DNA of 64,000 nucleotides, from the IMG/VR virus record IMGVR_UViG_3300027736_000034, positions 23,101-87,100 of that record; one strand, given 5' to 3'. Each line of letters starts with the position of its first letter. The first letter of the stretch is position 1. This stretch comes from a virus. Made by a program: the position numbers and the translations under genes. Of this stretch, positions 308-536 are shown piece by piece. The notes under the pieces were generated by a model. It saw nothing but the letters and a program-made list of their open reading frames with translations. It searched no databases and had not been told where the DNA came from.

Positions 308-536
308 TTCAACATCCGACCTAACGCTGGCAACAGAGGAAGTTCGGGACTTGTGGCAAGTGCGAGTAGGAGAAATTTACTTTGGTATTATGTAAAAATT
401 TACTTTGGTATTTCGTTAAACTACCTAGATATAACAAGCAACACAAACAGAGTCAGGCAACACTTGCGCTATTGATTCGGGTTGTGGCAAAGATTAATGT
501 TAGGATAAAACAAAATCCCGGCTATGGGATGTTGAA
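308..536 (+). ncRNA. rnpB: Minimal RNase P RNA (catalytic domain, reduced S-domain)
   Basis: P1 [21 protein letters not shown]2 CCTAACG/TGTTAGG; P3 CTG-GCAA-CAG; GAGGAAGTTCGGGA and ACAAAATCCCGGCTAT forming P4; P5 CTTGT/ACAAG+CAA; P6 GCAAGTG/CACTTGC; P15 CACAA/TTGTG; AGATTAATG before P2'. Confidence 0.85.

Follow-up and report, generated by a model that had tools for sequence, protein, structure and literature searches.

A reduced homologue of bacterial RNase P RNA within the tRNA gene array of a large phage

The RNA of RNase P, a ribozyme by which newly made tRNAs are trimmed, is regarded as a universal cellular gene, and the question raised by the locus described here is whether a virus can carry such a gene of its own. 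We analyzed a stretch of 64,000 nucleotides, referred to as the window, which spans positions 23,101 to 87,100 of the IMG/VR virus record IMGVR_UViG_3300027736_000034 (87.1 kb, completeness rated 24%). The element in question comprises 229 nt at positions 308-536 on the plus strand and is flanked by the genes for tRNA-His and tRNA-Leu. Around it, the window holds 26 tRNA genes in a single-strand array, and 8 more are located just upstream in the same record, which brings the total of the phage to about 34; the record also encodes tail-fibre, endolysin and ribonucleotide reductase genes. An earlier interpretation made from the nucleotide letters, the sequence-only reading, had proposed that the phage carries here a very small RNase P RNA with most of the specificity domain (S-domain) missing. 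This proposal is borne out by covariation, by Rfam matches in relatives and by R1, a covariance model trained on distant members. From these sequence comparisons we conclude that the element and RNase P RNA are homologous, and the identity of the element as a reduced RNase P RNA, derived from the bacterial class A form and carried by a large, uncultured tailed phage of freshwater, is well supported.

The predicted fold retains the full architecture of the catalytic domain (C-domain), that is P1 to P5, P4 with its bulged U, P6, P15 to P17 with the CGGGU loop, and the conserved regions (CR) I, IV and V (Table 1). All helices named in the sequence-only reading (P1, P2, a 3-bp P3, P4, P5, P6, P15 with GGT in the adjoining loop, and a P16-like helix) were recovered where it had placed them, and P18 is indeed absent, since at 487-499 the 3′ strand of P15 passes directly into the AGAUUAAUG string. 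The P1 repeat is the sole inverted repeat reported within 300-545. P4 shows the canonical layout of 3 bp (341-343/521-523), the bulged U344 and 5 bp (345-349/516-520), with the strands GUUCGGGA and UCCCGGC and a U.G pair adjoining the bulge; the P4 pseudoknot proposed before is present, but covariation in relatives moves its bulge from U343 to U344. The P6 pseudoknot, in which J5/7 pairs with the P17 loop, is a hallmark of class A.

Nearly all of the specificity domain (P7-P14 with CR-II and CR-III) is absent from the window element. In its place, a stub of 79 nt lies between the P5 strands, which consists of the P6 strand (7 nt), a single helix of 4 bp and a variable hairpin, so that the S-domain is reduced as suggested, but is not the roughly 60 nt first estimated. 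The base of the stub hairpin is paired in 68.9% of the alignment cells. Judging from motif likeness to class A, the stub helix is possibly P10/11-like and the hairpin P12-like. The direct repeat of 17 nt that had been noticed in this region is exact (373-389 and 396-412), but it is really part of a tandem duplication of 23 nt. In two relatives, L077 (567-803) and L092 (267-503), an identical G-to-U substitution (GGUAUU to GUUAUU) is found in both 23-nt copies, and such a concerted change is not accounted for by a simple old duplication. Among 36 aligned members, the length of the element ranges from 194 to 246 nt and that of the region between the P5 strands from 39 to 79 nt.

Table 1 Parts of the reduced RNase P RNA and selected tRNA genes of the array. 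Positions are those of the window; percentages of paired cells and compensatory pairs refer to the alignment of 36 sequences.
Feature	Position	Strand	Remarks
tRNA-His(GUG), encoded CCA, A54/U58-type T-loop	228..303	+	T-loop AUCGUUC, A at 54, U at 58; 3′ end 4 nt upstream of P1
Whole reduced RNase P RNA gene, P1 5′ strand to P1 3′ strand	308..536	+	229 nt
P1	308-317/527-536	+	perfect 10-nt inverted repeat; 10/10 pairs changed on both sides
P2	320-324/500-504	+	96.1% of cells paired; 5/5 pairs compensatory
P3, 3-bp stem with GCAA (GNRA) tetraloop	327-329/334-336	+	94.4% paired; 2/3 pairs compensatory
CR-I and P4 5′ strand AGUUCGGGA (341-349)	337..349	+	341-343, bulged U344, 345-349
P4 pair	343:521		U.G, C-G, G-C or U-A
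P4 pair	346:519		G-C, A-U or G.U
P4 pair	347:518		G-C or C-G
P4 pair	348:517		G-C or C-G
P4 pair	349:516		A-U or U-A
P5	350-354/434-438	+	93.3% paired; 4/5 pairs compensatory
P6 pseudoknot with P17 loop	356-362/461-467	+	81.3% paired; 7/7 pairs compensatory
S-domain stub	366..424	+	helix 366-369/421-424 (83.3% paired, 3/4 pairs compensatory) enclosing variable hairpin 372-414
23-nt tandem duplication, AT-rich	373-395 and 396-418	+	copies 87% identical; inside variable hairpin
J5/15, P15, internal loop, P16, P17	439..486	+	same parts in Rfam alignment of L092
P15	442-445/483-486	+	100% paired; 4/4 pairs compensatory
Internal loop AACAG / CGGGU	446-450 / 478-482	+	CGGGU nearly invariant
P16	450-455/473-478	+	92.6% paired; 6/6 pairs compensatory
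P17, 2 bp	457-458/468-469	+	98.6% paired
J15/2 with AGAUUAAUG string (CR-IV-like)	487..499	+	
CR-V and P4 3′ strand UCCCGGCU (516-523)	508..524	+	
tRNA-Leu(AAG), encoded CCA	546..622	+	starts 9 nt past P1
tRNA-Lys(CUU)	7753-7826		T-loop AUCGUUA, A at 54, U at 58

The evidence that carries this assignment comes from two structure alignments, in which the fraction of paired cells was compared with that obtained after sliding the pairing partners. In the first set of 20 sequences, 87.8% of the cells were paired compared to 32-42% in the slid control; P4 was invariant in this set because the search pattern had contained fixed P4 letters. New members were fetched by means of the P18-less signature, in which the 3′ strand of P15 is joined directly to J15/2. 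This signature retrieved 48 viral loci, of which 46 were recognized by R1, and a second alignment of 36 sequences includes members found without fixing P4. Here, 89.5% of the cells were paired (slid: 33-43%), changes on both sides occurred at 53 of the 59 pairs (slid: 31-35), and the covariation score amounted to 0.584 (slid: 0.09-0.13). The observed covariation values were reached by none of 500 shuffles; however, kinship among the sequences inflates shuffle-based measures, and the slid control is therefore the fairer comparison. Covariation was apparent in every helix, the P6 pseudoknot included. Within P4, 99.7% of the cells were paired and five of the eight pairs were compensatory, and the bulged U344 was kept in all 36 sequences. 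From these compensatory changes we conclude that selection preserves the architecture in many phages.

The sequence-only reading had named lack of covariance-model support for the P4 core, along with lack of cleavage activity, as a result that would speak against it. No Rfam model of RNase P matched the window copy, neither at the gathering threshold nor at E ≤ 10 (280-560 searched); likewise, a search of the record with RF00010 (class A), RF00373 (archaeal) and RF02357 (type T) yielded no RNase P match at this position, RF02357 giving none at E ≤ 10. The only Rfam matches at E ≤ 10, namely Cyano-1, Yar_2 and snR107 (14-16 bits), lie far under their own thresholds and were rejected as chance. 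Since the Rfam miss by itself would be such an adverse result, relatives were sought, and it is the compensatory changes at five of the eight P4 pairs in these relatives, rather than an Rfam match to the window, that support the P4 core.

The relatives also help to interpret the Rfam miss. Among 20 viral relatives that are longer or divergent, all of them located among tRNA genes, six exceed the gathering score of the class A model of 100 bits (L070, 189.3; L029, 168.3; L046 and L083, 165.2 each; L013, 157.8; L052, 124.4 bits), eight obtain lower RF00010 scores (from 93.6 down to 30.7 bits), two match RF00373, and four match neither. In the minimal clade, five of 18 loci match RF00373 across the whole element (L003, 51.8; L034, 46.9; L138, 38.6; L092, 35.4; L030, 27.4 bits) and the other 13 do not; overall, the RF00373 scores of relatives range from 26 to 59 bits and are all below the gathering score of 84 bits. 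Near-identical relatives behave erratically in this respect, as L092 scores 35 bits whereas L077 and L066 obtain no score. We therefore attribute the Rfam miss to the limits of models and filters and do not count it as evidence against homology. L092 shares 90.7% identity and equal length with the window element, and its Rfam alignment agrees with the manual assignment (P1/P2, the 3-bp P3, CR-I, P5, J5/15, P15, the CGGGU loop, P16, J15/2 and CR-V); its CR-I is aligned to the Rfam CR-I consensus, and the S-domain is crossed by local jumps.

The bridge between these relatives and the window is provided by R1, which describes the 3′ module only (P5 3′ strand to P1 3′ strand), with P1-P6 outside the model, and which was trained on eight distant members, with the window and its close clade excluded. 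On both strands of the 64-kb window together, R1 gave a single match, located at 433-538 with 84.1 bits (E 3.7e-20), and the remaining 23 kb of the record contained no R1 match (best 11.7 bits, E 0.19). Among the loci L001-L100, R1 matched 38, including all six above the Rfam gathering score and none of five loci that we had rejected as chance.

To which extent the family is distributed was addressed by string searches combined with R1. A scan of viral contigs with a CR-I-like 15-mer returned at least 117 loci; among the 117 matches listed, 44 were followed on the same strand by the string CCGGCT at a distance of at most 400 nt and 73 were not, and most of the 15-mer loci are chance matches, as indicated by these 73 without the second string. 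The five rejected loci mentioned above (L009, L012, L041, L051 and L062) represent GC-rich coding DNA without an R1 match. L076 and L079 lack the exact CCGGCT string, yet are matched by R1 (36 and 38 bits), from which it follows that the family is wider than the string filters showed. Besides the record of the window, at least 74 viral contigs are R1-positive (38, 35 further and 1; distinct by name). Five of five near-complete phage genomes (332-482 kb; two with terminal repeats) contain exactly one R1 match each, and P1 is directly preceded by the end of a tRNA in 10 of 14 related loci. Among 185,579 cellular species (one genome each), the P18-less signature occurred six times (L189-L194); none of these six was recognized by R1 or by Rfam, and we regard them as chance.

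One copy was found in a cultured phage, Stenotrophomonas phage vB_SmaS-DLP_6 (KU682439.2), hereafter DLP6, with an R1 score of 78 bits (E 7e-20). It is located at about 105771-106020 (L202:1300-1549), between a hypothetical coding sequence and a tRNA-Arg gene just downstream, and is unannotated in KU682439.2; in the main text of the genome paper, as far as it was covered, the terms "RNase P", "ribonuclease P" and "ribozyme" do not occur (PMC5349666). The DLP6 copy has the same reduced S-region and in addition an insert at the position of P18; an insert at that position is also carried by the relatives L101, L011 and L024. In 50,697 phage records, blastn with the window element gave only chance matches to transposase genes of Staphylococcus phages, blastn with L008, L029 and L052 gave no match, the sole match of L070 was the RNase P RNA of a Salmonella chromosome contig, and megablast with positions 1-6000 of the window gave no match.

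The stretch is present in freshwater metagenomes of many studies. In metatranscriptome assemblies, contigs cover 224-575 in pieces (run X15), 418-583 (X16) and 376-536 (X18), while in four runs no contig covers the coding stretch 1-200 or the stretch 1051-1150. One contig of run X15 represents the variant of a relative: its P3 has the sequence GGC-GAAA-GUC in place of CUG-GCAA-CAG, with the stem preserved, and a C replaces U at 343, so that the U.G pair of P4 would become C-G.

The breadth of this family bears on whether the element might be the decaying remnant of an RNase P RNA gene that was once captured and has no function now. The shrunken S-domain, the AT-rich tandem duplication in the stub, the weak fold energy and the failure of Rfam to detect the window copy would all be compatible with decay. 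However, 53 of 59 pairs are compensatory in the alignment of 36 distinct sequences, at least 74 other viral contigs carry the family, each of the five near-complete jumbo genomes has a single copy, and the core strings are invariant. These findings are difficult to reconcile with loss of function, and we regard a relic as highly improbable.

We therefore turn to what the RNA may do. We favour, with a probability of roughly 0.65, that it is an active ribozyme which uses the RnpA protein of the host to act on the CCA-bearing pre-tRNAs of the phage. According to this proposal, the RNA would be transcribed within the tRNA array, released by processing of the flanking tRNAs and bound by host RnpA, and would then cleave the 5′ leaders of the approximately 34 phage pre-tRNAs. 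The pre-tRNA would be held mainly by its acceptor end, the encoded 3′ CCA pairing with the GGU of the L15 loop, in place of the T-loop contact that is normally made by the lost S-domain. The pairing between RCCA and GGU has been described for bacterial RNase P (excerpt of PMC11143913), and the C-domain of the E. coli RNA alone cleaves with reduced efficiency (excerpt of PMC5839562). Since the 3′ CCA is encoded by all 26 tRNA genes of the window, CGGGU is kept and a C-domain alone can cleave, we infer an RNA that acts independently of an S-domain and holds its substrate at the acceptor end. As a result, the phage would own a tRNA-maturing capacity during infection.

A different choice of substrates was also considered, since the sequence-only reading had linked the element to tRNAs with non-canonical T-loops. 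Indeed, in two of the 26 window tRNAs, tRNA-Lys and the tRNA-His directly upstream of the element, the usual pair is swapped to A54/U58; however, the other 24 T-loops are canonical, and because of this small number we grade the link as weak. An RNase P retargeted to odd substrates, be it A54/U58 tRNAs, the tRNA-like modules found in the variable hairpin of relatives (see below) or host or phage mRNAs, could build on these features, but with 24 canonical tRNAs out of 26 and no specific alternative substrate identified we deem it very unlikely.

The other component of the proposed enzyme is the protein. RnpA (PF00825) was not found in the 87.1-kb record, which is itself 24% complete, and a search over 16 viral records showed its absence from 15. 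The exception is G012 (476 kb, 97% complete), which has a minimal RNase P RNA and encodes an RnpA homologue of 99 amino acids (PF00825, 50 bits) at L195:8376-8675(-), corresponding to G012:C1:440376-440675. Its neighbours are packed small open reading frames (ORFs) of phage type and a ClpP-like head-maturation protease and do not represent a host-type cluster. Relatives of this protein are encoded on four more viral contigs (L197-L200), and the only near-complete one of them, G017 (483 kb), has an R1 match too (L201). Some jumbo phages may thus carry both putative RNase P subunits. For the RNA of the window, host RnpA is most likely the partner, as predicted from these gene contents.

Two alternatives take up the role of the protein. 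In the first, the RNA would be a non-catalytic decoy or regulator that retains those surfaces of RNase P RNA which bind protein or resemble substrate, sequesters host RnpA or tRNA precursors, and thereby shuts down or retunes tRNA maturation of the host. The loss of S-domain and P18 and the lack of an own protein partner in 15 of 16 viral records would suit such a sponge, but the invariant positions are those of catalysis and substrate docking (the bulged U in 36 of 36 sequences, CR-I, CR-IV, CR-V and CGGGU) and go beyond what protein binding asks for. Moreover, a phage that encodes about 34 tRNAs itself depends on RNase P activity, and the joint occurrence of RnpA and RNA in two near-complete jumbo phages fits a holoenzyme better. 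We consequently consider a decoy improbable. In the second, the ribozyme would be active independently of host RnpA, either alone or together with an unrecognized phage protein that replaces both RnpA and the S-domain. Bacterial-type RNase P RNA is catalytic by itself in vitro (excerpts of PMC5839562 and PMC11143913), and the window encodes, besides many ORFs of unknown function, a match to the "RNA-binding protein" family phrog_850 (18110-19525, E 2e-139). Against this stands that no linkage evidence was obtained for any phage protein and that the RNA-alone activity of C-domain constructs is weak (excerpt of PMC5839562). In addition, the phage-encoded partner, where present, is a plain RnpA homologue, by which RnpA is indicated as the partner. 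We therefore attribute only a small chance to an RnpA-independent ribozyme and continue to favour the active enzyme that works with host RnpA.

Several observations weigh against an active, host-RnpA-dependent ribozyme and are to be set against the evidence above. The Rfam models miss the window copy, and likewise the near-twin L066 and the DLP6 copy. The fold energy of the whole element is not significant (minimum free energy z-score −1.44, with 16 of 200 shuffles equally stable), and the stub hairpin folds weakly (−6.1 kcal/mol, z 0.14), no better than shuffled sequences. Kinship contributes to the shuffle-based covariation measures, as mentioned. In model enzymes, loss of the S-domain and of P18 lowers the activity (excerpt of PMC5839562). 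The metatranscriptome contigs that cover the element give a weak hint at expression, but contigs cannot prove transcription, ends or abundance. With a completeness of 24%, there is room for a phage RnpA or a second RNA outside the sequenced part of the record. Finally, the best isolate match of the ribonucleotide reductase NrdA reaches only 60% identity. A cyanobacterial host, an idea derived from the 2OG-Fe(II) oxygenase genes described below, was dropped, as NrdA and the phrog_850 protein are 44-60% identical to isolates of several phyla.

In some relatives, the variable stub hairpin contains an insert of 105-156 nt closed by a perfect stem extension of 11-16 bp. Long hairpin inserts were seen in L020:300-649(-), L044:349-649(-), L154:112-461(+), L178:113-461(+), L148:362-669(-), L030, L061 and L069. 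Several inserts, among them those of L020, L044, L154 and L178, hold tRNA-like modules, which combine an acceptor-like stem ending in CCACCA with a GGGUUCRAAUCCC T-arm, and Rfam reports a tRNA match (42.8 bits) inside the L044 element; ARAGORN with lowered thresholds detected no tRNA or transfer-messenger RNA (tmRNA) in the hairpin inserts of nine relatives. If such a module were processed like a tRNA, the ribozyme of those relatives would end as two pieces. Taken as a whole, the proposition would be that tailed phages with large tRNA arrays encode an active RNase P RNA of the smallest known bacterial-type form (194-246 nt in the aligned members), which lacks S-domain and P18, recognizes the acceptor end and CCA, works with RnpA of the host or, in certain jumbo phages, of the phage itself, and in some relatives cuts itself into a two-piece enzyme via the tRNA-like module of the stub; we see the odds of this combined statement as even.

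Further genes accompany the tRNA array and the window. HNH endonuclease genes and several 2OG-Fe(II) oxygenase genes are interspersed in the array (1609-2169, 11901-12485, 4676-5305, 8510-9121 and 2-223), and a DNA endonuclease V-like ORF (phrog_274) is located at 6364-6984. The phrog_850 match corresponds to a protein of 471 amino acids with DUF2828 and DUF7788, which is encoded a few kb past the tRNA array and has relatives of 44-49% identity in many large phages including DLP6. Cell-like auxiliary genes encode an Fe/Mn superoxide dismutase (47254-47808), an FdhD/NarQ family protein (61997-62827) and a D-Ala-D-Ala carboxypeptidase (56724-57458).

With class A (RF00010) the element shares the P1-P5 core, P4 of 3 bp, bulged U and 5 bp, P6 to the P17 loop, P15-P17 with CGGGU, and CR-I, CR-IV and CR-V. 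It differs from class A in its length of 229 nt compared to a model of 367 positions, in the lack of P18, in the 79-nt stub that stands for P7-P14 with CR-II and CR-III, and in being phage-encoded, inside a tRNA array and without an Rfam match. Among the Rfam models, only the archaeal RF00373 yields scores for the minimal clade, presumably because it also lacks P18; however, the phage RNAs show the class-A-specific arrangement of P6, P16 and P17, and from this arrangement, together with the bacterial-type relatives, we argue for a bacterial ancestry. The type T RNase P RNA of the Thermoproteaceae (Pyrobaculum; RF02357) is similar in size (about 200 nt) and likewise keeps the catalytic domain with the S-domain nearly gone (excerpt of PMC3579882). 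In contrast, type T is archaeal and cellular and works with archaeal proteins, whereas the phage form appears to be derived from class A, as judged from P6, P16/P17 and the relatives that match RF00010. The engineered E. coli RNA that consists of the C-domain only (Eco CP RPR, RPR denoting RNase P RNA) resembles the phage RNAs in that cleavage without an S-domain is workable, but is man-made and less efficient (excerpt of PMC5839562), while the phage RNAs are natural and conserved, keep a short stub and have also lost P18.

The nearest precedent is provided by the extra RPR copies with altered S-domains of Mycobacterium austroafricanum and Mycobacterium sp. YC-RL4, which lie beside an endonuclease gene and are thought to be horizontally acquired (excerpt of PMC9569102); endonuclease genes are found nearby in the phage as well. 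These copies reside in bacterial genomes and, in the portion of that paper covered, are not reported as phage-borne or S-domain-less, a distinction that is made by description only. Within the open full-text literature, with subscription journals outside its coverage, no description of an RNase P RNA encoded by a phage was found, nor does one appear in the matched passages of two reviews, from 2024 and 2016. Lui et al. report on two megaphages in which a complete Rfam scan recovered only tRNAs and a tmRNA (excerpt of PMC8172020).

If the proposed activity is true, RNase P would be an enzyme of viruses as well as of cells, and a conserved viral lineage would extend the translation-related functions carried by phages to the 5′ maturation of tRNAs. 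The family would further represent a natural minimization, in which selection without S-domain and P18 keeps P1-P6, P15-P17, CR-I, CR-IV and CR-V, and it is relevant to a question of long standing, namely how small the catalytic core can be and how a substrate is recognized when the T-loop contact is missing. Standard annotation is blind to this family, as Rfam misses the copies of the window, L066 and DLP6. With the cultured phage DLP6 and its host, the question becomes directly testable at the bench.

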